Assembly (NCBI GenBank): GCA_021650915.1
Contig: CP091279.1
Location: forward strand, 2,220,001 to 2,252,000
From: Candidatus Brocadia sp.
Lineage (GTDB): Bacteria > Planctomycetota > Brocadiia > Brocadiales > Brocadiaceae
Direction of reading: 5' to 3'
DNA length: 32,000 nucleotides
Below the pieces are notes generated by a model. The model made no database searches and had not been told where the DNA came from. It was given only the letters and a program-made list of their open reading frames with translations. The position numbers and the translations under genes were made by a program. Each line of letters opens with the position of its first letter. The first letter of the stretch is position 1. Positions 8,296 through 27,034 of the stretch are shown piece after piece.

Positions 8296-8676
8296 ACGGC
8301 ACCTCCTGAAAGGGGTTTGTGAAAAAACTTACAGAAAAAAGAAGTTTTTATGGAGTAATACTATAATATGTTTACAGGTAACTTATTATACGGCTATTTG
8401 GGCATAGGAATGATTTGCCGGTAATATACCTTGATTACCAAAATATTGCAATACGTTTTACTTTTTCATCAGGACAACGTCAAATATAAGTAGTGTTTGA
8501 ACGGAAACCCCCCAGAGCCCTGTAAAGTAAGGAGAAGCTGGTGAAAAATGTTCATGAAAGTCATTGAATTTTTTCGGGTAAAAGGGTAAAATATGGCGAA
8601 AATGAAGGGATTCTGGGTATAAAGAGTCCAAATATTCGGTTCATTAACCCACTAGCCAAAGGACATTCGATAGAAG

Positions 8677-10141
8677 ATGAGAAAGAGATTTGAGCAGCAA
8701 TTGAAGCTTGGCATCATACCCATTTCAGGGGTAAAACTGCCAATAAAGAGTCGAGATGAGCTACCACCGATACTGAGGGCGTTGCAACATATCTATGTTA
8801 CACCGGAGTTGAACGAGGAGGTATTCCGGATATTAGAGGCGAAGGTAACGAAGGGGAAGAAAAAGACGGGAAGATATGGGATGGATTTATGGCATATTTT
8901 GGTGTTGTCGGTGGTAAGATTAGGGTTAGATGCCGATTATGACAGGTTGGAGGATTTTGCCAACCATCACAAACTTATCAGGCAGATAATGGGGGTTGAG
9001 ACGGCATTTGGAGAGGCGAAGGTTTTTTCGATGCAGAGCATCAAGGACAATATAAGATTGTTGGATGAGGAGACCCTCAGGCAGATAAATGAAGTGGTGA
9101 TATCATCGGGGCATCAGTTGGTTAAAAAAAAGGACGAAGGACTGTGTATTAAGGTGGATACGTATGTGTTAGAGACGAATGTACACTTTCCGGCCGATAT
9201 GAATTTATTGTGGGATGCGGGACGCAAGAGTCTGGACATGATAGAGGATGCAATAGAGGAAGGCATCCTGGCGGGGAAAGGATGGCGCAAGAGCAAATAT
9301 TGGAGGAGAGAGTTAAAAAAGCTGATGAGGATAAGCGCAAAGGCGTCAAGCAGCGGGGGGGAAAAACAAGGAAGAGCATGTGAGGAGTTACTTGGAATTA
9401 TCGAGGGGTTTGAGTGAAAAGATAGGAGCGAGTCTGTTAGCCATCTACGAAAAGGTGCTAACGACGAACCAGGTAGACAAGCATGCAGGGAAAATAGGGA
9501 CACTGGAGTATTTTCACGGGATGTTGAATAAACAGATAGACCTGGTGGAGAGAAGGGTGATCCGGGATGAGGTAATACCGGCGGCAGAAAAGGTTCATTC
9601 GTTGTTTGAGCCGCATACGGAGTGGCTGTACAAAGGCAAGTCAAACAAAAGGGTAGAGTTGGGACATAATATTCTGGTAGCAAGCGATCAGTGGGGTTTC
9701 ATCGTGGACCATGTGGTAGGAGAAAAACAGGCGGATGTATCGTTGGTAATTCCATTGGCAGATAGGTTGTTGAGCCGTTACGGAGAAGGCACAATAAAGA
9801 GTATAAGTTTTGATAAAGGTTTTTACAAGAAAGAGAATAAAGAGTTGCTGAGTTTGTATATACCAGAGGTAATCCTTCCCAAGAAGGGCAAGAAGAATAA
9901 GGCGGAACAGGAAGAGGAATCGGGTAAGACATTTAAGAAGCTAAGGCACAAGCACTCGGCGGTAGAATCGGATATCAATCGTTTGGAGCATCACGGCTTG
10001 GATAGGTGTCCGGACAAAGGGCTGCATGCCTTTAAAAGATATTGTGCAATGGGCGTGTTAGCTGCGAATTTGCACAAGCTGGGAAACGTGCTGCAGGAGA
10101 AGGCACGGAAGCAGTGCGAAAAGTTGCGAAAAGCCGCCTAA
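8677..10141 (+). pseudogene. DDE transposase (about 487 aa if repaired), split into 8677-9417 and 9380-10141 by a +1 frame change in a G7 run
   Basis: The N-terminal DUF772-like segment is LWHILVLSVVRLGLDADYDRLEDF. The DDE candidates are IKVDTYVLETNVHFPAD, SFDKGFY and RHKHSAVESDINRLE. Frame 1 switches to frame 2 at GGGGGGG (9355-9361). Deleting one G fuses ...AKASSSGG to KNKEEHVRSYLELS... Confidence 0.75.
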
Positions 10142-11313: not shown

Positions 11314-11378
11314 AATCCGGAAAATACGTACTGGACAATTATCTTACTGAACATGGACTTATGGGGAGGAAGAGGCAC

Positions 11379-12872
11379 ATGAAGGTGTTTTTGTCATTTG
11401 TGGGAGTGGCAATACTCTTTGGTGTTTTTTGCGGGGGAATACCGGCTCAAAAACTCGATAAAGGGGTAGGGCCGTACGGCGAATTCTGGAAACCAATCCC
11501 TACCCAGCGATACTGGGCACCGGACTACTTTTATTCACCGCCGGAAGAACCCAAAGGGGTATATACCGCGGATGAGTGTACGCTCTGCCACAAGGCTTTA
11601 AATCCAGGACTCGTTAAGGCATGGGCAGAAAGCAGCCATGCGAATCTCGATAAGCTGCTTGACTACCAGAAAGAGAAATTAGCCGAAATAGAAAAGACCC
11701 TGGGGCGGAAACTCACCAAGGTGGGATGTATCGATTGCCACGGCAAGGTGGGAGCGGAAAAGCTGGATCATGAAAAAGAGCTCGTTATGCCAAATTCCGC
11801 ACTGTGCGGTGGATGCCATAAACAGGAATACGAAGAGTTTGAGTCAGAAAAGCAATACGGTATTCCTGACTGGAAGCCAGGCAGGGAAAGCCATGCAAAG
11901 GCCTATGATGCCAATCTGGACGTGGATGTGTGGGCTGCGGTAGATAAGAATATTGTTCAGGGCTGCGATATGTGCCACAATATTCAGCACAAGTGCGACA
12001 GCTGTCACACCCGCCACGCCTTTAAGGCCTCTGAGTCCAGGCGTCCGGAGGCTTGCCAGACCTGTCATAACGGACCCGACCATCCTGATATTGAATATTA
12101 CCGGGACTCCAAACACGGTTCGATCTATTTTACCGAGGGGAAAGACTGGGACTGGAAAAAACCGCTCAAGGACGCCAATTATATTGCGCCCACCTGTCAG
12201 TCCTGCCATATGTATTACAAAGGGCAGTATTCTCACAATATGGTCAGAAAGGCCATTATGGGCGAGGGCGACGTATTGTTTTATGACAATGTGTTCAAAG
12301 GGATTAAGCCCACCGACTACCTCAGGAACAGCAAAGAATTAATGGCACGGCGCGAGGCATGGATAGAAGTCTGCGTAAAGTGTCATTCTCCACGGTTTTC
12401 CCGTGATTATCTTGATTCTATGGATAATGCCTCGGATGCTGTTTTCCAATACGTGAGCGATGCCTACGCCACGATTAAATCGCTTTACGAAGAGGGCATA
12501 CTCTACCCTATGCCTGAAAACAGGCCAAAAGCCCCTGCCCCCGTTGCGGAAAAGTATCCCGATCTCCTGGGCGGTTTCTACGGTGAATTTTGGGCGAAGA
12601 GCGGAAATCCGAGCAGGATTGAAAAGGACTTTTTGTATATGTGGGAAAACGATGCCTTTCTGGTCAGAAAAGGTCTGGCGCACATGAACCCCAACGGCTT
12701 TACCTATCTCTCGTGGTCAAATTTGCTCAAGAAATACGTGGATATACAAAGTGAGGCAAATACCTTGCGGCGGTTAGCTGCGTTGGAAAAGAAAGCCAAA
12801 CTGCGCCCCCGGACAAAAACGAAAAGTAAACAGACGCCCGGCGCAGCAGGGCCACAACAAAATCCTCCGTAG
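11379..12872 (+). CDS. hao: Octaheme hydroxylamine/hydrazine-oxidoreductase (HAO) family cytochrome c, secreted
   Basis: The start is ATG 11379, with GGAGGA 8 nt upstream. There is a signal peptide and eight CxxCH motifs (CTLCH, CIDCH, CGGCH, CDMCH, CDSCH, CQTCH, CQSCH, CVKCH). Colinear similarity to N. europaea HAO, recalled from memory, includes HANLDK, GCIDCH, CHTRH, KPEAC.TCH and GLAH.NP.G.TY. Confidence 0.9.
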   Translation: MKVFLSFVGVAILFGVFCGGIPAQKLDKGVGPYGEFWKPIPTQRYWAPDYFYSPPEEPKGVYTADECTLCHKALNPGLVKAWAESSHANLDKLLDYQKEKLAEIEKTLGRKLTKVGCIDCHGKVGAEKLDHEKELVMPNSALCGGCHKQEYEEFESEKQYGIPDWKPGRESHAKAYDANLDVDVWAAVDKNIVQGCDMCHNIQHKCDSCHTRHAFKASESRRPEACQTCHNGPDHPDIEYYRDSKHGSIYFTEGKDWDWKKPLKDANYIAPTCQSCHMYYKGQYSHNMVRKAIMGEGDVLFYDNVFKGIKPTDYLRNSKELMARREAWIEVCVKCHSPRFSRDYLDSMDNASDAVFQYVSDAYATIKSLYEEGILYPMPENRPKAPAPVAEKYPDLLGGFYGEFWAKSGNPSRIEKDFLYMWENDAFLVRKGLAHMNPNGFTYLSWSNLLKKYVDIQSEANTLRRLAALEKKAKLRPRTKTKSKQTPGAAGPQQNPP

Positions 12873-17279: not shown

Positions 17280-17492
17280 GCTTTTAATGTAATCGGTAAG
17301 GGTATCTTTCGCAAATAAATTTTTCTTTTGATGTTTCATTGCGCTAAAGAAATTAAAAACCTTGTAATCTTTAATACGTATTGCTAAAATAGCCCCGCTG
17401 CTAATGGAAAGAAATTTTCTATCATTTCCCATCATTGTCACGTATCAACGTAACCAATTCCAACTTGTTGAACGGCTTTGCCAGGAGGGCGT

Positions 17493-18335
17493 ATGAGAGA
17501 CCGAAGAATTGCCTTACTCATAATCATCATAATCTCTGTGTGCACCATTGCATGCGGATGTAAGAAAAAAGCAAGACTCTACGGCGTAACAACGTGGAAC
17601 GCAGGCTGCGCGGCCACGAACCTTCCCTGGTGGGATGACATGGGGCTTGCCTGGTATAATGAGATCGCCAATACCGCGCACTCCGGGGCATACGCTCAGG
17701 ACGGCCAGACCATCGACGGCAATGTCGTAGACAGCCTGTTCACCGATACCGGTCTGGTAAACTGGGGAAACGATCACAACAACATTGATGTTGCAGACGC
17801 TGCCCTCATCTTCATGCACGGCAGTGAAAGCAATGACCGCTGGCAGGGCAGTGTCAGGGTCGATGAGGCAGGCGCAGGAGATTGTCAAACCTGGCAGGGG
17901 GATATGCGCTTTGGCAACACCAATCTCAAGTTTCTCCATCTCTCCTCCTGCAACAGTATGGACGATAACCAGTGGGCCGACCGGTGGTGGGAATCCTTCA
18001 GCGGCCTGCATCAGGTGGATGGTTTTCATGGTTTCATGTGGATCGGGTCGGATCTGGTCAGCGATTACGAAGACTTTGCATCCGATGCCTTCACCGCCAC
18101 AATCGCAGACGCCTGGCTTGATAATATGTACCATGCGGATATCAGCGGCACGGATGACCAGTGCCCGGTGGCATACGCGGTGGGGGTCAACAGCGATGAC
18201 ACCTGGAACAGAATCGGCGCCGAACGGTATAACAACGTGCTTTCCAATCCCACCAGCGTAGGATACTGGGGAACCATTTATTTCGAGAACTGCGATCCCG
18301 CAAACGAAGACACCATCGGCACGGGTATCGATTGA
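17493..18335 (+). CDS. Exported lipoprotein of unknown function with a clan-CD-peptidase-like His-Gly / Ser-Cys pattern
   Basis: AGGAGG (17483-17488) precedes ATG 17493. The signal is MRDRRIALLIIIIISVCTIAC with a lipobox-like TIAC. ALIFMHGSESNDRW lies 44 residues before NLKFLHLSSCNS. The protein is Trp- and Asp-rich, and the segment is GC-richer than its flanks. Confidence 0.6.
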   Translation: MRDRRIALLIIIIISVCTIACGCKKKARLYGVTTWNAGCAATNLPWWDDMGLAWYNEIANTAHSGAYAQDGQTIDGNVVDSLFTDTGLVNWGNDHNNIDVADAALIFMHGSESNDRWQGSVRVDEAGAGDCQTWQGDMRFGNTNLKFLHLSSCNSMDDNQWADRWWESFSGLHQVDGFHGFMWIGSDLVSDYEDFASDAFTATIADAWLDNMYHADISGTDDQCPVAYAVGVNSDDTWNRIGAERYNNVLSNPTSVGYWGTIYFENCDPANEDTIGTGID

Positions 18336-18348
18336 GGAGGAACCAGAA

Positions 18349-19203
18349 ATGAAAATGAAAAGATGCTGCCTTATTATCGTTTCCGTCTGTTTTTTGGCGC
18401 TTGCCATGGTGAGGACTACCGTCGCACAGGAAAAAGAACAGACGCCGGTTTCTGATTATTCTGACGTAATCAAAGAATCTCTGCCTGCATGGAACGAAGA
18501 CGTTCTTAAGGCGCCAAAACAGAAGACATGGACGGAGCGCGCCTCAATGCAATCGTTGATTGAGGCGGTTCGGGACGATGTTCGGGGAAAACAGGAAAAT
18601 TTTCAGGATAACGAACGGAAGGTGTCCATCGAAAAGGACCGGGGGTATGTCCGGTATATCAATGCACATCGTGGTTACAAACACGGAGTCTCGCCTGCAA
18701 AGCCGGTAGCCGGGGATCAGGCTGAAAGGATGATCGTCGAAGCGGTGAAAATCATTGGTGTGCCGGAGGACGAGCTGAAAGGACCTCACGTGGCAACGGT
18801 CCTGGGTCAGGGTGGTTCGATTCAGGAAAAGGCAAGGGATGCGGCGTTTGCCAGGGAACAGCTTGTGTATATCGAGCGCACGGTCAACAATCTTCCGGTA
18901 TTTGCCTCTGAGATTAAGGGGTCGGTTTCGAATTCGGGCGAGATTGCCCGTCTGCTTGTTAAGTGGCCGGATTTTCTGATGGCGGACGTTCAGAAGATAA
19001 AGCCGCGGGATCAGGTAATCAGCACTATCCTCAGCCAGATCCGCGAGGCCTTGCAGGGGCAGCCCATTTTTTCGGTCAACATGAAACTCGCTTACACACC
19101 CTTACAGACTGAAGGAAAGATCAGGTATGTGCCGGGCATTGTGGTCTCAGTTATTCCCGCGGCAGGAAACGGCATCATGTTTACCGTGCCGGTTGCGGAT
19201 TAG
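18349..19203 (+). CDS. Secreted protein of unknown function, cotranscribed partner of 17493-18335
   Basis: GAGGAGG (18334-18340) overlaps the upstream stop codon, 8 nt before ATG 18349. The signal peptide is MKMKRCCLIIVSVCFLALAMVRTTVAQ. I could name no recognisable catalytic motif. Confidence 0.65.
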   Translation: MKMKRCCLIIVSVCFLALAMVRTTVAQEKEQTPVSDYSDVIKESLPAWNEDVLKAPKQKTWTERASMQSLIEAVRDDVRGKQENFQDNERKVSIEKDRGYVRYINAHRGYKHGVSPAKPVAGDQAERMIVEAVKIIGVPEDELKGPHVATVLGQGGSIQEKARDAAFAREQLVYIERTVNNLPVFASEIKGSVSNSGEIARLLVKWPDFLMADVQKIKPRDQVISTILSQIREALQGQPIFSVNMKLAYTPLQTEGKIRYVPGIVVSVIPAAGNGIMFTVPVAD

Positions 19204-19308: not shown

Positions 19309-20049
19309 TCATTTGATTTCAGGCGTCGCATTCGGATCAAAGGGATTCATTCTTACGGCAAAGGAGAAGAGATAGGGGTAATCGTCCTTTAAATGTCTCA
19401 TATATTCGAGCCATTCGAAAATGAGCGCCAGGTATGCCCGTTTTATATCGCCAGAAAGATGAGCATAGTCAGCATTTGACAACGTGCTCACGTCAGCCCT
19501 TGCGATTAGTTCTTCCGTCAGGTGAGATACCGCCCACAGAAGTTCTGTAAAGGACTCATGTTCCAGCAAATTGGGATTTTCCAGGAGGCGCAATAAAAAA
19601 TCCCTTTTCTCCACGAGAAAATTCCGCAATTCCGCTAAATTACCATTTTGACTATCCATGCGGCAGTCAAAACTTTTCACGCCTTTGCCGGTGTCAAAAA
19701 ATTCTTTTTCTGACCAGGTGTTCGTTACCACAAGATTTTCTCTTATTTTGTCAAAGGTGCGGTCAAAATGAGAAAAATACTGTAAGAGTTTTATTCCCAT
19801 CTCGCTAAAGAAGGCGCCAATTACCATGTTCAGTTTTTTCATAACAGCGCGCTTCTCCCGTTCACTGAGCAAGCGATGGATAATGAGGGTAACAAACAAG
19901 ACCTCTATTGGGACAAATGCGATGTCTCCGATCAGAAAAATAAAAATATGATGAGCATCCTGAAAGATTTCATAATGGATAAAATAGAGGAATGCGGATA
20001 TGGTAACAAGAGACAAACCCAAATAGAGTTGCCAATGCAGACGTTTCAT
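19309..20049 (-). CDS. Membrane protein of unknown function (two N-terminal TM helices plus a cytoplasmic helical domain of about 170 aa)
   Basis: ATG at 20049. The TM helices are LYLGLSLVTISAFLYFI and IFIFLIGDIAFVPIEVLFVTLII. It lies downstream of, and on the same strand as, the ferritin-like gene. Confidence 0.6.
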   Translation of the reverse strand: MKRLHWQLYLGLSLVTISAFLYFIHYEIFQDAHHIFIFLIGDIAFVPIEVLFVTLIIHRLLSEREKRAVMKKLNMVIGAFFSEMGIKLLQYFSHFDRTFDKIRENLVVTNTWSEKEFFDTGKGVKSFDCRMDSQNGNLAELRNFLVEKRDFLLRLLENPNLLEHESFTELLWAVSHLTEELIARADVSTLSNADYAHLSGDIKRAYLALIFEWLEYMRHLKDDYPYLFSFAVRMNPFDPNATPEIK

Positions 20050-24337: not shown

Positions 24338-27034
24338 ATGGTAATGATTCCAAAAATTAAATTAACTATTGACGGCAAAACCGTAGAGGTGAATAAAGGG
24401 AAAACGGTTCTGCAGGCGGCCAACGCCGTCGGCATTCAAATTCCAACCCTGTGCCATGATCCGCGTCTTGAGCCTTTTGCGGCATGCCGTGTCTGTATGG
24501 TGGAGGTGGAGCGGGGGAAGTCGAGCGCACTCATCACTTCATGCAGCACCGAGGCTACCGATGGGATGGTAATCTGCACGAATTCCGATAAGGTGCTAAA
24601 GACACGAAAGATGGTTCTGGAGCTGATCCTTTCTGACCATCCCAAGGATTGTATGACCTGTGATAAATGCGGCGCCTGTACGCTACAGGACCTTGCATAT
24701 GAATATCAGGTGCGGGATAGCAGGTTCTTTGAAAAACCCGACGGTGGGGTTACCGAAGATGAAAACCCTGCTATTCAGCAGGATACCAGCAAGTGCATCC
24801 TCTGTGGCCGCTGTGTCCGTATCTGCGCCGAAGTGCAGCAGGATTATGCGATTGACTTTAAACATCGCGGATTTACGACGGAAACCGGTCTGCCCCTTGG
24901 AAAACCGCGGCGCGAGACGAGCTGTGTCCTCTGCGGCCAGTGTGTGTCCACCTGCCCCGTCGGTTCGTTGGTGGAAAAACAGGCCGTTGGAAAGGCGAGG
25001 GACTGGGAACTGAAACAGGTAAAAACCACCTGTGCATATTGCGGCGTAGGTTGCACGATGTATTTAAACGTAAAAGGGAACGAGGTTGTGAAGGTGACCT
25101 CAAAGACGGGTTCTATCCCGAATGACGGAAATCTCTGTGTGAAAGGGCGATTTGGCTATGACTTTGTCCATCACCCCGACCGGCTGAAGCAACCGCTCAT
25201 AAAGAAGAACGGAAGATTTGAAGAGGCAACATGGGACGAGGCGTTCGATTTTATTGCCGGTAAATTGAATGACATAAAGGCCAGATACGGACCTGATACG
25301 ATAGGGGTATTCAGTTCTTCGCGATGCACCAATGAAGAGAACTATCTGGCGATGAAATTTGCGCGGGCTGCGATTGGCACGAACAACGTAGACCAGTGTG
25401 CCCGGACTTGACACGCACCATCCGTCGCCGGTCTGGCGATGTCATTTGGCAGCGGTTCAATGACCAATTCCATCAGTGAAATCAAGGATTGCAAACTCAT
25501 CTTCCTCATCGGTGGCAATCCCACCGAGGCGCATCCGATTGTAGGACTGGAGATGAAAAAGGCGCTCAGCAAGGGGTGTGTCTTTATCGTTGCTGACCCG
25601 CGCCAGATATGGTTTTCACAGCACGCAAAGTTATATCTCCCTTTGAAACCTGGCACAGACAACTGGCTGTTAAACGCAATGGCGCACGTCATCCTTGAGG
25701 AGGGCCTCGAAAACAAGGAATTCATCAGGACGCGGACCGAAGGTTTTGAAGAACTAAAGGAATTTCTGAAGGATATTACACCTGAAAAAGCCTCGGAATT
25801 TACCGGTGTTCCTGCTGAAGACATCAGAAAGGCGGCAAGAATGTATGCCCAGTCGGAGAAGTCCGCAATATATTACACCCTGGGTATTACGGAACATACA
25901 TGCGGAACCGACAATGTACGAAGCATCGCAAATCTCGCCTTGTTAACCGGACACATTGGGAAACCGAGCACCGGGGTGAACCCCATCCGCGGGCAAAACA
26001 ACGTCCAGGGCGCCACAGACATGTGTTTGCCCGATAAATTGCCTGGATATCAGCCGTTTTCGGATCAAAAAGTTGTGGAAAAATTCGAAAAGGCCTGGGG
26101 CGTTACTTTGAACAAGACTCCGGGGAATACATCGCCAACCATGTTTGAACGTATGAATAAAGGGGAATTTAAGGCGTTGTATGTCATCGGGGAAGATCCT
26201 ATTATGAGCGAACCCAATCAGAAATATACCATCAATGGATTAAAAAACTTAGAGCTTCTGGTCATACAGGATATTTTCATGTCAGAGACAGCCAGGTATG
26301 CTGACGTAATCTTGCCGGCCACAAGTTTTGCGGAGAAGGACGGTACCTTTACCAACACCGAACGCCGTGTACAGCGGGTGCGCAGGGGGATCAATCCTGT
26401 TGGAAATGCAAAGCCTGACTGGAAGATCACCTGTGAGCTGTCCACCCGTATGGGGTATAAAATGGATTATCCTTCTCCCAAAGAGGTATGGGACGAAATA
26501 GCCAGTCTTGTGCCCATGCTTGCAGGCATTAATTACGGACGGATCGAACAGAACGGCATTCAATGGCCATGTCCCGACGTAAAACATCCCGGAACAAAAT
26601 TCCTGCACGAGGGCAAATTCCCGCGTGGTCTGGGCAAGTTTTTCGTGCTGCCCTACCGCGCCCCTGCTGAGAGCCCTGACAAGGAATATCCTTTATTACT
26701 TACTACGGGGCGAACCCTGTATCATTATGGAGCAGGAACGATGACCCGCCGGTCGGCTGGCATTATTCATAAGACAAATGACTGTTTCGTTGAAGTACAC
26801 CAGGCGGATGCCGGGGAACTGGGCATCTTTGACGGTGAAATGGTAAAGGTTGTTTCTCGCAGAGGGGAGATAACGGCCCGCGCCGAGGTCTCTGACAAGG
26901 TAAAACAGGGTGTCATCTGGATACCCATGCATTTTGCGGAGGCCGCCGTGAATAAGCTGACCATGGACGCCTACGACAACATCACCCAGACGGCCGAATA
27001 TAAGGTCTGCGGGGCAAAGATTGAAAAGCTATAA
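24338..27034 (+). CDS. fdhA: Selenocysteine-containing formate dehydrogenase alpha subunit (NuoG-like N-terminal Fe-S domains plus a molybdopterin/tungstopterin domain); one gene spanning track ORFs 24338-25411 and 25439-27034
   Basis: Both ORFs are in frame 2 and are joined through TGA 25409-25411 in the conserved context [30 protein letters not shown]. Cofactor motifs are 2Fe-2S (CHDPRLEPFAACRVC), 4Fe-4S (CILCGRCVRIC, CVLCGQCVSTCP, CAYCGVGC) and the MGD-binding C-terminus (LLLTTGRTLYHYG). Confidence 0.85.
25424..25440 (+). promoter_or_regulatory. SECIS hairpin for the FDH UGA
   Basis: GUCGCC (25424-25429), loop GGUCU, GGCGAU (25435-25440), starting 13 nt after the UGA. The loop GGUC and the flanking codons resemble the E. 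coli fdhF SECIS (GGUUGCAGGUCUGCACC), recalled from memory. Confidence 0.65.

Follow-up and report, generated by a model that had tools for sequence, protein, structure and literature searches.

Here we describe a pair of adjacent genes in the genome of Candidatus Brocadia sp. (assembly GCA_021650915.1, contig CP091279.1, positions 2,220,001 to 2,252,000 of the forward strand), a 32,000-nucleotide (nt) stretch of DNA that we call the window and in which all coordinates below are given. The first gene (gene 1) encodes a member of the Pfam family DUF6345 with a predicted fold like that of clan CD cysteine peptidases, and the second (gene 2) encodes an exported partner whose predicted fold resembles the propeptides of M4 and M36 metalloproteases. 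A preliminary description, made from the letters alone, had singled out this segment (17493–19203) as a GC-rich, translationally coupled module of a clan-CD-peptidase-like lipoprotein and a secreted partner. The features of the locus, with lengths in amino acids (aa), are as follows.

17483–17488, plus strand: Shine–Dalgarno sequence AGGAGG of gene 1, read from the sequence, with the ATG 4 nt further on
17493–18335, plus strand: gene 1, DUF6345, predicted exported caspase-fold (clan CD-like) cysteine peptidase of 280 aa (Pfam, homologs, AlphaFold2 model, Foldseek)
17493–17561, plus strand: signal peptide of gene 1, MRDRRIALLIIIIISVCTIACGC, a charged N-region followed by a hydrophobic core, with a possible lipobox (IACG/C)
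17817–17822, plus strand: codons CAC GGC of the predicted catalytic His-Gly (H114-G115; H109-G110 from the ATG), from sequence, conservation and strand 108–112
17943–17957, plus strand: codons of the S-S-C-N-S motif with the predicted nucleophile C158 (C153 from the ATG; TGC at 17949–17951), from conservation and strand 152–156
18334–18340, plus strand: Shine–Dalgarno sequence GAGGAGG of gene 2, overlapping the TGA stop codon of gene 1 (18333–18335)
18349–19203, plus strand: gene 2, exported partner of 284 aa with a predicted FTP+PepSY propeptide-like fold and no Pfam family (AlphaFold2 model, Foldseek, linkage)
18349–18429, plus strand: Sec-type signal peptide of gene 2, MKMKRCCLIIVSVCFLALAMVRTTVAQ, from the sequence and the low-confidence N-terminal helix of the model
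18712–18963, plus strand: first helix and antiparallel-sheet module of gene 2, FTP-like in the model, residues ~122–205 (DSSP H122-136, E143-154, E166-179, E182-194, E199-205)
19006–19191, plus strand: second helix and sheet module of gene 2, PepSY-like in the model, residues ~220–281 (DSSP H220-235, E240-254, E257-270, E276-281)
17514–18407, minus strand: antisense 'shadow' open reading frame (ORF) of 297 aa, from the mechanical ORF list, opposite the conserved gene 1

Genes and export signals

Residues of gene 1 are numbered in the 285-aa frame of the mechanically called ORF, which begins with TTG (17478–18335, plus strand); subtracting 5 gives the position in the ATG-started protein. Judged from the sequence, the ATG at 17493 is the likely start, because it lies 4 nt after AGGAGG and yields a protein of 280 aa, the length of the closest database homolog. 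A spacer of 13 nt separates the two genes, and the ribosome-binding site of gene 2 lies over the stop codon of gene 1, both as first described. The ORF coordinates, the sequence motifs and the His–Cys spacing given in the preliminary description are likewise all present in the sequence.

The gene 1 signal had been read as that of a lipoprotein. Both lipobox candidates, TIAC and ACGC, are non-canonical at position −3; checked by hand, the second Cys presumably fits the looser PROSITE-type rule. A Cys of this region aligns with a Cys (LNGC) in a 76%-identical homolog (P0003). It is absent in other phyla, where homologs carry ordinary signal peptides of the Ala-X-Ala type. A lipoprotein signal is thus plausible within the anammox clade, but the claim does not extend to the other homologs.

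The 297-aa antisense ORF exists as described, has no Pfam match and is not a gene. Antisense stop codons are few because a strongly conserved gene with a GC content at third codon positions (GC3) of 0.66 lies on the opposite strand.

Predicted caspase-type fold of gene 1

Gene 1 matches Pfam DUF6345 (PF19872) over residues 44–253 with 62.9 bits against a gathering cutoff of 26.9 (E = 3.8e-17). The initial statement that the pair could be placed in no described system therefore does not stand for gene 1, although DUF6345 is a functionally uncharacterised family. All 47 aligned homologs match the same model, on which the clade under study scores only 27–63 bits. A protein search returned 201 homologs, every one of them labelled DUF6345 or hypothetical, and gene 1 had no matches in NCBIfam, PADLOC or PHROGs.

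The AlphaFold2 model of gene 1, built from the 47-sequence alignment, has a predicted local distance difference test score (pLDDT) of 93.7 and a predicted template modelling (TM) score of 0.88. When this model was compared with the PDB using Foldseek, the first 27 matches were all clan CD proteins (TM 0.40–0.46). Among them are the SAVED-CHAT filament 8tl0, which is the best match (E = 5e-4), caspase-1, the paracaspase MALT1, caspase-4/-11, Dronc and the CHAT domain of DdvA; caspase-3 is a clan CD match further down. As modelled, gene 1 has the alpha/beta/alpha caspase–hemoglobinase fold of clan CD.

Predicted catalytic dyad

The gene 1 motifs ALIFMHGSESNDRW and NLKFLHLSSCNS set a His 44 residues ahead of a Cys (H114 and C158; H109 and C153 from the ATG). 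In the model, H114-G115 comes right after strand 108–112 (LIFM-HG) and is followed by a beta-hairpin, and S157-C158 comes right after strand 152–156 (FLHLS-SC). We take this strand–His and strand–Cys topology to be the beta3-His and beta4-Cys arrangement of caspases and of clan CD. Reviews of the clan describe the same features: a His that precedes the Cys, a Gly after the His and a hydrophobic strand before each (PMC4357240, PMC12445089).

Conservation was assessed in 205 non-fragment homologs, drawn from 80 reference-genome loci and from protein searches. H114, G115, S157 and S160 are conserved in all 205. Position 158 is Cys in 201 sequences (98%) and Ser in the other four, with no other residue, and because Ser is the sole replacement for Cys we regard C158 as nucleophile-like. 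Together, sequence and model make H114 and C158 a well-supported predicted dyad. The suggestion that gene 1 is clan-CD-peptidase-like is thus supported by its fold matches, by the topology of its His-Gly and Cys strands and by the conservation of the two residues (100% and 98%). The checks named in the preliminary description, carried out in full or in approximate form, did not refute it.

Five Cys residues of gene 1 are highly conserved, and a second His-Gly...Cys pair, H184-G185...C229, has nearly the same spacing as the first. We rejected it as the dyad: five sequences have A, Y, N or D in place of H184, and the only sequence without C229 (locus L074) is also without C272. This pattern suggests a C229–C272 disulfide. 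The acidic residues D90, D99 and D107 are invariant in the same alignment; as a speculation, they would suit a basic P1 residue.

Predicted prodomain-like fold of gene 2

Gene 2 has no Pfam family above threshold. Its product is 100% identical to a protein from Candidatus Brocadia metagenome-assembled genomes (MAGs). A word-indexed protein search found anammox relatives only, and 173 homologous proteins emerged when 1.84 billion representatives were searched exhaustively with HMMER. From 52 diverse homologs, AlphaFold2 produced a model with a pLDDT of 91.7, in which a conserved N-terminal region (residues ~37–105, with LPxW and G-x-x-R-Y-x-N-x-x-R motifs) is followed by two tandem modules, each of a helix and an antiparallel sheet.

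The best PDB matches of this model are cleaved propeptide chains, those of vibriolysin MCP-02, 3nqz_A (E = 1.3e-4) and 3nqy_A (2.4e-4), and that of Aspergillus fungalysin, 4k90_B (1.7e-3). These propeptide matches have Foldseek probabilities of 0.97–1.0 and target-normalised TM scores of 0.28–0.46 over 159–175 columns. The PepSY-like regulator YycI ranks beside them, and nothing further in the PDB was significant. Sub-threshold Pfam matches recur across the family, to FTP in 11 of the 52 members (best E = 0.006) and to DUF4901, the YcdB/YcdC repeat, in four. By modelled fold, gene 2 is FTP+PepSY-prodomain-like, but it is not a Pfam member by score; its second module appears PepSY-like in the model. 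The roles first listed for the partner (inhibitor, chaperone or substrate) can be narrowed by this resemblance to M4 and M36 propeptides.

Linkage, fusions and correlated divergence

A genome scan using one genome per species gave 80 DUF6345 loci, spread over Planctomycetota, Acidobacteriota, several proteobacterial classes, Gemmatimonadota, Fibrobacterota, Verrucomicrobiota, Eisenbacteria and others. By hidden Markov model, 74 of them have the partner as the next gene downstream, on the same strand. Five loci seemed to be without it, and their downstream gene, of 354–380 aa, proved to be a divergent partner in a profile–profile comparison (hhalign: 97.7% probability, E = 2.4e-12, 246 columns). 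The one remaining locus is truncated downstream and was left out of the count. Thus every one of the 79 loci with sufficient sequence downstream has the pair, which answers the question of co-occurrence raised in the preliminary description. In three distant genomes a Pfam-less gene of 299–331 aa follows DUF6345 after a gap of 10–16 nt, and the two of these genes that were compared pairwise with gene 2 are 28% identical to it (E = 1e-29 and 5e-22).

At 16 loci both genes form one reading frame with DUF6345 first. Fusion proteins in the databases have the order DUF6345, partner, then TSP3 or dockerin, and a Pro/Gly/Ala-rich linker of 30–60 residues replaces the signal peptide of the partner. 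Linkers and termini yielded no conserved cleavage motif. Long partners that are not fused carry C-terminal TSP3, dockerin, Big_5 or FlgD_ig/Por_Secre_tail domains, the last serving sorting via a type IX secretion system (T9SS); in one lineage with such partners there is a 4-nt overlap between the genes.

Pairwise divergences are correlated between the two genes (r = 0.66; 0.00 ± 0.03 when shuffled). Mean identity is 26% for gene 2 against 43% for gene 1, so that gene 2 evolves faster, as one would expect if it were a prodomain or inhibitor and gene 1 its enzyme. Beyond the pair, the flanks vary between genomes and consist of unrelated housekeeping genes; in the window the neighbours are an NAD synthetase, a glutamate racemase, a rubrerythrin and a TPR protein. 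Because these flanking genes differ from genome to genome, only the pair is conserved. Pfam-less genes upstream of it at two alphaproteobacterial loci are unrelated to each other.

Several genomes hold two separate copies of the module: a chromosome of Eiseniibacteriota (OZ245046.1; loci L025 and L030), a Gemmatimonadota MAG (L017 and L022) and a Phycisphaeraceae MAG (L055 and L064). The module has therefore been duplicated or acquired repeatedly within lineages. A further pair (L060, 1026–2935) lies on a 3.5-kb contig binned to the archaeon Nitrosopumilus, all other loci being bacterial; this reflects a wrongly binned contig or else a rare transfer between domains of life.

Within the DUF6345 subfamily that diverges most, the pair is followed by a third conserved gene (L082:6029-6811, L083:2048-2842 and L084:6168-6956). 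Its product is secreted, has ~260 aa and ends in a PEP-CTERM-like tail; the L082 and L084 products are 50% identical (E = 7e-72), and the match to PEP-CTERM in L083 is weak. This gene, which could be a substrate or a third component, is absent from the Brocadia window.

Base composition of the segment

The preliminary description had stressed a jump in composition. The jump is real, the 1711-nt segment having a GC content of 0.530 against a window mean of 0.473, but it is modest, at ~0.8 standard deviations per 60-nt line. The segment is the window maximum at that scale: 0.5% of stretches of the same size reach its value, and all of them overlap it. The GC counts per 60 nt that were first quoted (38, 34 and 31 in the segment, 19 and 23 in flanking genes) are all exact, but the genes chosen for comparison are the two most AT-rich neighbours (0.417 and 0.404). 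A windowed GC calculation thus does find a deviation, and a small one. In GC3, gene 1 exceeds every other gene of the window (0.658 against 0.43–0.60), and three other genes have a GC content of 0.51–0.53.

Outside the window, the Jettenia pair has a GC content of 0.48 against flanks at 0.38, and its neighbours are not syntenic with those in Brocadia; in high-GC hosts the pair lies slightly under its flanks. In every host the composition of the pair tends towards an intermediate value. This fits constraint from a very conserved protein rich in Gly, Ala, Asp and Trp, lateral mobility of the module, or both. The family is scattered over many phyla at 45–60% identity. Anammox relatives share the pair at 72–90% identity, so that any transfer was not recent. 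No mobile-element genes flank the pair in the window, tblastn found no match that would indicate carriage on plasmids, and PHROGs gave no phage match. An origin in a defence system or a phage, which the CRISPR-associated CHAT protease at the top of the fold matches might bring to mind, was rejected: PADLOC and PHROGs were empty and both proteins have export signals. The GC signal is real, yet it is the least informative part of the finding.

Other genes of the window

The convergent downstream neighbour of the pair (19309–20049, minus strand) has a product of 246 aa that shows hydrophobic segments at the N terminus and matches no Pfam family; with a GC content of 0.417 this gene is among the most AT-rich of the window. 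At 8677–10141 (plus strand) a Pfam-less 246-aa ORF overlaps a 253-aa ORF with a DDE_Tnp_1 transposase domain, which suggests an insertion-sequence-like element with a possible frameshift. The strongest GC skew of the window (0.31–0.44 over 8501–10000) coincides with these ORFs. A multihaem cytochrome with seven CxxCH-type motifs (11361–12872, plus strand; Pfam Multi-haem_cyto, E = 1e-84) fits the anammox origin of the DNA. At 24338–27034 (plus strand) two molybdopterin-oxidoreductase ORFs in one frame are joined by a TGA (25409–25411) inside NVDQCART*HAPSVAGL, a context that we take to be the selenocysteine active-site motif of formate dehydrogenase alpha subunits. The two are probably a single selenocysteine-containing FdhA-like gene.

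Proposed function of the pair

We propose, with middling confidence, that the pair consists of an exported clan-CD-type cysteine peptidase and a prodomain-like partner that acts in trans in chaperoning or latency. In Candidatus Brocadia it would be a self-contained two-gene operon with both products exported. Gene 1 would be a cysteine endopeptidase in which the His of the invariant His-Gly (H109 from the ATG) serves as general base and C153, within the Ser-Ser-Cys-x-Ser motif, as nucleophile. Gene 2 would be translated from the messenger RNA of gene 1 by way of the ribosome-binding site over the gene 1 stop codon, and its product would form a one-to-one complex with the peptidase, either in the periplasm or on the surface of the cell. 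FTP+PepSY prodomains of M4 and M36 peptidases are intramolecular folding chaperones and temporary inhibitors. As a prodomain in trans, gene 2 may likewise aid the folding or stability of the enzyme and keep it latent until release. In other lineages the partner is fused behind the peptidase and bears calcium-binding TSP3, dockerin or T9SS sorting modules, so that it may in addition hold the enzyme at the cell surface. Our data show the folds (as models), the pattern of conservation, an obligatory linkage and the fusions; catalysis, physical binding and the inhibitor or chaperone role are inferred.

Several observations weigh against this proposal. The fold matches of gene 1 are modest (best E = 5e-4; TM < 0.5), and flavodoxin-like folds also match its model at E ~0.03–0.06. 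At E ≤ 10, Pfam found DUF6345 alone in the 47 family members and no clan CD family, Peptidase_C14 and CHAT included. The family profile searched against PDB sequences found no clan CD chain and only chance matches, as did phmmer with gene 1 itself, and hhalign of the profile against human caspase-3, its sequence confirmed against PDB chain 7xn4_A, was uninformative (0.4% probability). For gene 2, the Pfam FTP match lies below threshold (12.6 bits against a cutoff of 21; E = 0.13; residues 172–199), neither gene 2 nor its 52 family members have a Pfam PepSY match, and gene 2 and its family profile found nothing among PDB sequences. Additionally, known FTP+PepSY prodomains are N-terminal to metalloproteases, whereas here the module is C-terminal or separate and accompanies a cysteine-peptidase fold. 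Because module position and type of partner enzyme both differ, function is transferred to gene 2 by analogy. Finally, the anchoring modules of long partners fit tethering as well as inhibition.

That last point leads to a reading in which gene 1 is an active clan-CD-type peptidase and the partner is a targeting or anchoring subunit, for the cell surface or a substrate, rather than an inhibitor or chaperone. The terminal modules of the longer partners, the position of the partner between peptidase and anchoring modules in fusions and the high rank, among the structural matches, of YycI, which regulates signalling in the periplasm and is not an inhibitor, would all be accounted for. However, the Brocadia partner and most partners of 280–330 aa have no anchoring module, and the best structural matches are inhibitory prodomains. 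The two roles are compatible, and we consider anchoring instead of inhibition rather unlikely. Strict pairing and fusion would also be seen if the partner were a dedicated substrate, or if gene 1 were a sortase-like transpeptidase that processes or ligates the gene 2 product. Clan CD does include transpeptidases, and PorU, GPI8 and legumain-type ligases process or ligate their substrates; the flexible Pro/Gly/Ala-rich linkers could be cleaved, and in one subfamily a third secreted protein with a PEP-CTERM-like tail accompanies the pair. We nevertheless find a substrate role improbable, as linkers and termini carry no conserved cleavage motif and the partner is predicted to be compact, confidently folded, two-module and prodomain-like, which is not typical of cargo.

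Doubt can also be directed at gene 1, which might be a caspase-fold protein without peptidase activity, a binding module or another enzyme, with His and Cys kept for metal binding, for example. Its lack of sequence-level similarity to any characterised peptidase and the modest fold scores would fit such a protein, and with five highly conserved Cys residues part of the conservation is structural. Yet His-Gly is invariant and Cys gives way only to Ser, which is nucleophile-type behaviour, and both residues end strands (108–112 and 152–156), whereas other conserved Cys residues behave differently, C229 and C272 being lost together; we therefore give this reading little credence. A different kind of alternative holds that the segment matters mainly as a recently acquired foreign island marked by its GC rise. 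It draws on the window maximum in GC and GC3, on the contrast with non-syntenic flanks in Jettenia and on the scatter of the family over phyla. This too seems unlikely, because the deviation is only +0.06 and other genes of the window reach 0.51–0.53, the intermediate composition seen also in high-GC hosts is that expected of a conserved Gly/Ala/Asp/Trp-rich protein, mobile-element genes and plasmid or phage matches are lacking, and anammox relatives keep the pair at high identity.

Returning to a peptidase with a prodomain-like partner, we suggest more tentatively, at a little under even odds, that DUF6345 and its partner are an unrecognised, phylum-spanning class of exported caspase-fold proteases whose latency or folding is controlled by an FTP/PepSY-type prodomain in trans or as a C-terminal fusion. 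If so, clan CD would gain a new family, or the MEROPS family C84 a large and hitherto overlooked extension, and the partners would be a new family of protein regulators that act on cysteine peptidases. As clan CD comprises caspases, gingipains, legumains and separase, new bacterial branches help to explain how the fold is regulated and has diversified. A domain of unknown function gains a concrete, testable predicted dyad, and a Pfam-less family with at least 173 representative clusters gains a structural identity through its model. From strict pairing and natural fusions one would expect a complex of protease and regulator to occur widely in environmental bacteria, among them anammox bacteria, Acidobacteriota, Planctomycetota and Proteobacteria. 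Should the partner act on the enzyme as inhibitor or chaperone, FTP/PepSY modules would have a role outside metalloproteases too, and an unstudied class of secreted proteases would become accessible; our literature search found no tie between such a regulatory module and any enzymes other than zinc metalloproteases. The finding overturns no expectation; it offers a testable hypothesis for a widespread uncharacterised module.

Comparison with known systems

We found no description of the DUF6345–partner pairing in the open-access literature, and a literature search found no paper with both 'PepSY' and 'clan CD'. In layout the pair recalls SpeB/Spi, staphopain/staphostatin, KLIKK/potempins and SleB/YpeB, in each of which the gene of a secreted hydrolase is followed by that of a small partner that inhibits or stabilises it. 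Spi, the partner of SpeB, is propeptide-like, and YpeB, the partner of SleB, carries PepSY domains. Potempins inhibit the KLIKK proteases co-produced by Tannerella forsythia (bioRxiv 10.1101/2025.09.05.674453). These systems belong to unrelated families, however, and in none of them does an FTP/PepSY-like protein accompany a clan CD fold.

The propeptides of M4 (thermolysin, vibriolysin MCP-02) and M36 (fungalysin) peptidases are the best structural matches of gene 2 and share its two tandem helix and antiparallel-sheet modules, and a weak FTP sequence signal recurs across the gene 2 family. Gene 2 differs in being separate or C-terminally fused, in accompanying a cysteine-peptidase fold instead of a zinc metalloprotease, in remaining under the Pfam thresholds and in its extra conserved N-terminal region. 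No metalloprotease domain was found in the loci or fusions of the pair.

A link to a periodontal virulence factor is circumstantial. We take the forsythia detaching factor, the full-length form of PrtH of T. forsythia (UniProt O24742), to be ~60 kDa in size. PrtH/forsythia detaching factor defines MEROPS C84, a bacteria-only family that was assigned to clan CD from its predicted fold and, as of 2015, lacked a solved structure (PMC4357240). Vesicle proteomes of T. forsythia contain a 536-aa, 60.4-kDa 'DUF6345 domain-containing protein' (PMC10682907); our literature search found no other paper that names DUF6345. DUF6345 may be the C84 family or a relative of it, and given its low scores on the DUF6345 model the clade under study would be at best a distant branch. 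If the family includes PrtH, the pair would supply a structural and regulatory model for that virulence factor.

MEROPS divides clan CD into eight families (PMC12445089). With CHAT proteases, C14 caspases and MALT1, gene 1 shares a predicted alpha/beta/alpha caspase-type fold, a His that precedes the Cys by ~44 residues, a Gly next after this His and a hydrophobic strand leading up to each of the two residues. It has no detectable sequence similarity to C14, CHAT or other Pfam clan CD families, and its motif is SSCxS where theirs is QACRG or Ala-Cys. What further distinguishes gene 1 within the clan is that it is exported, has conserved probable disulfides and is obligatorily accompanied by a prodomain-like partner.

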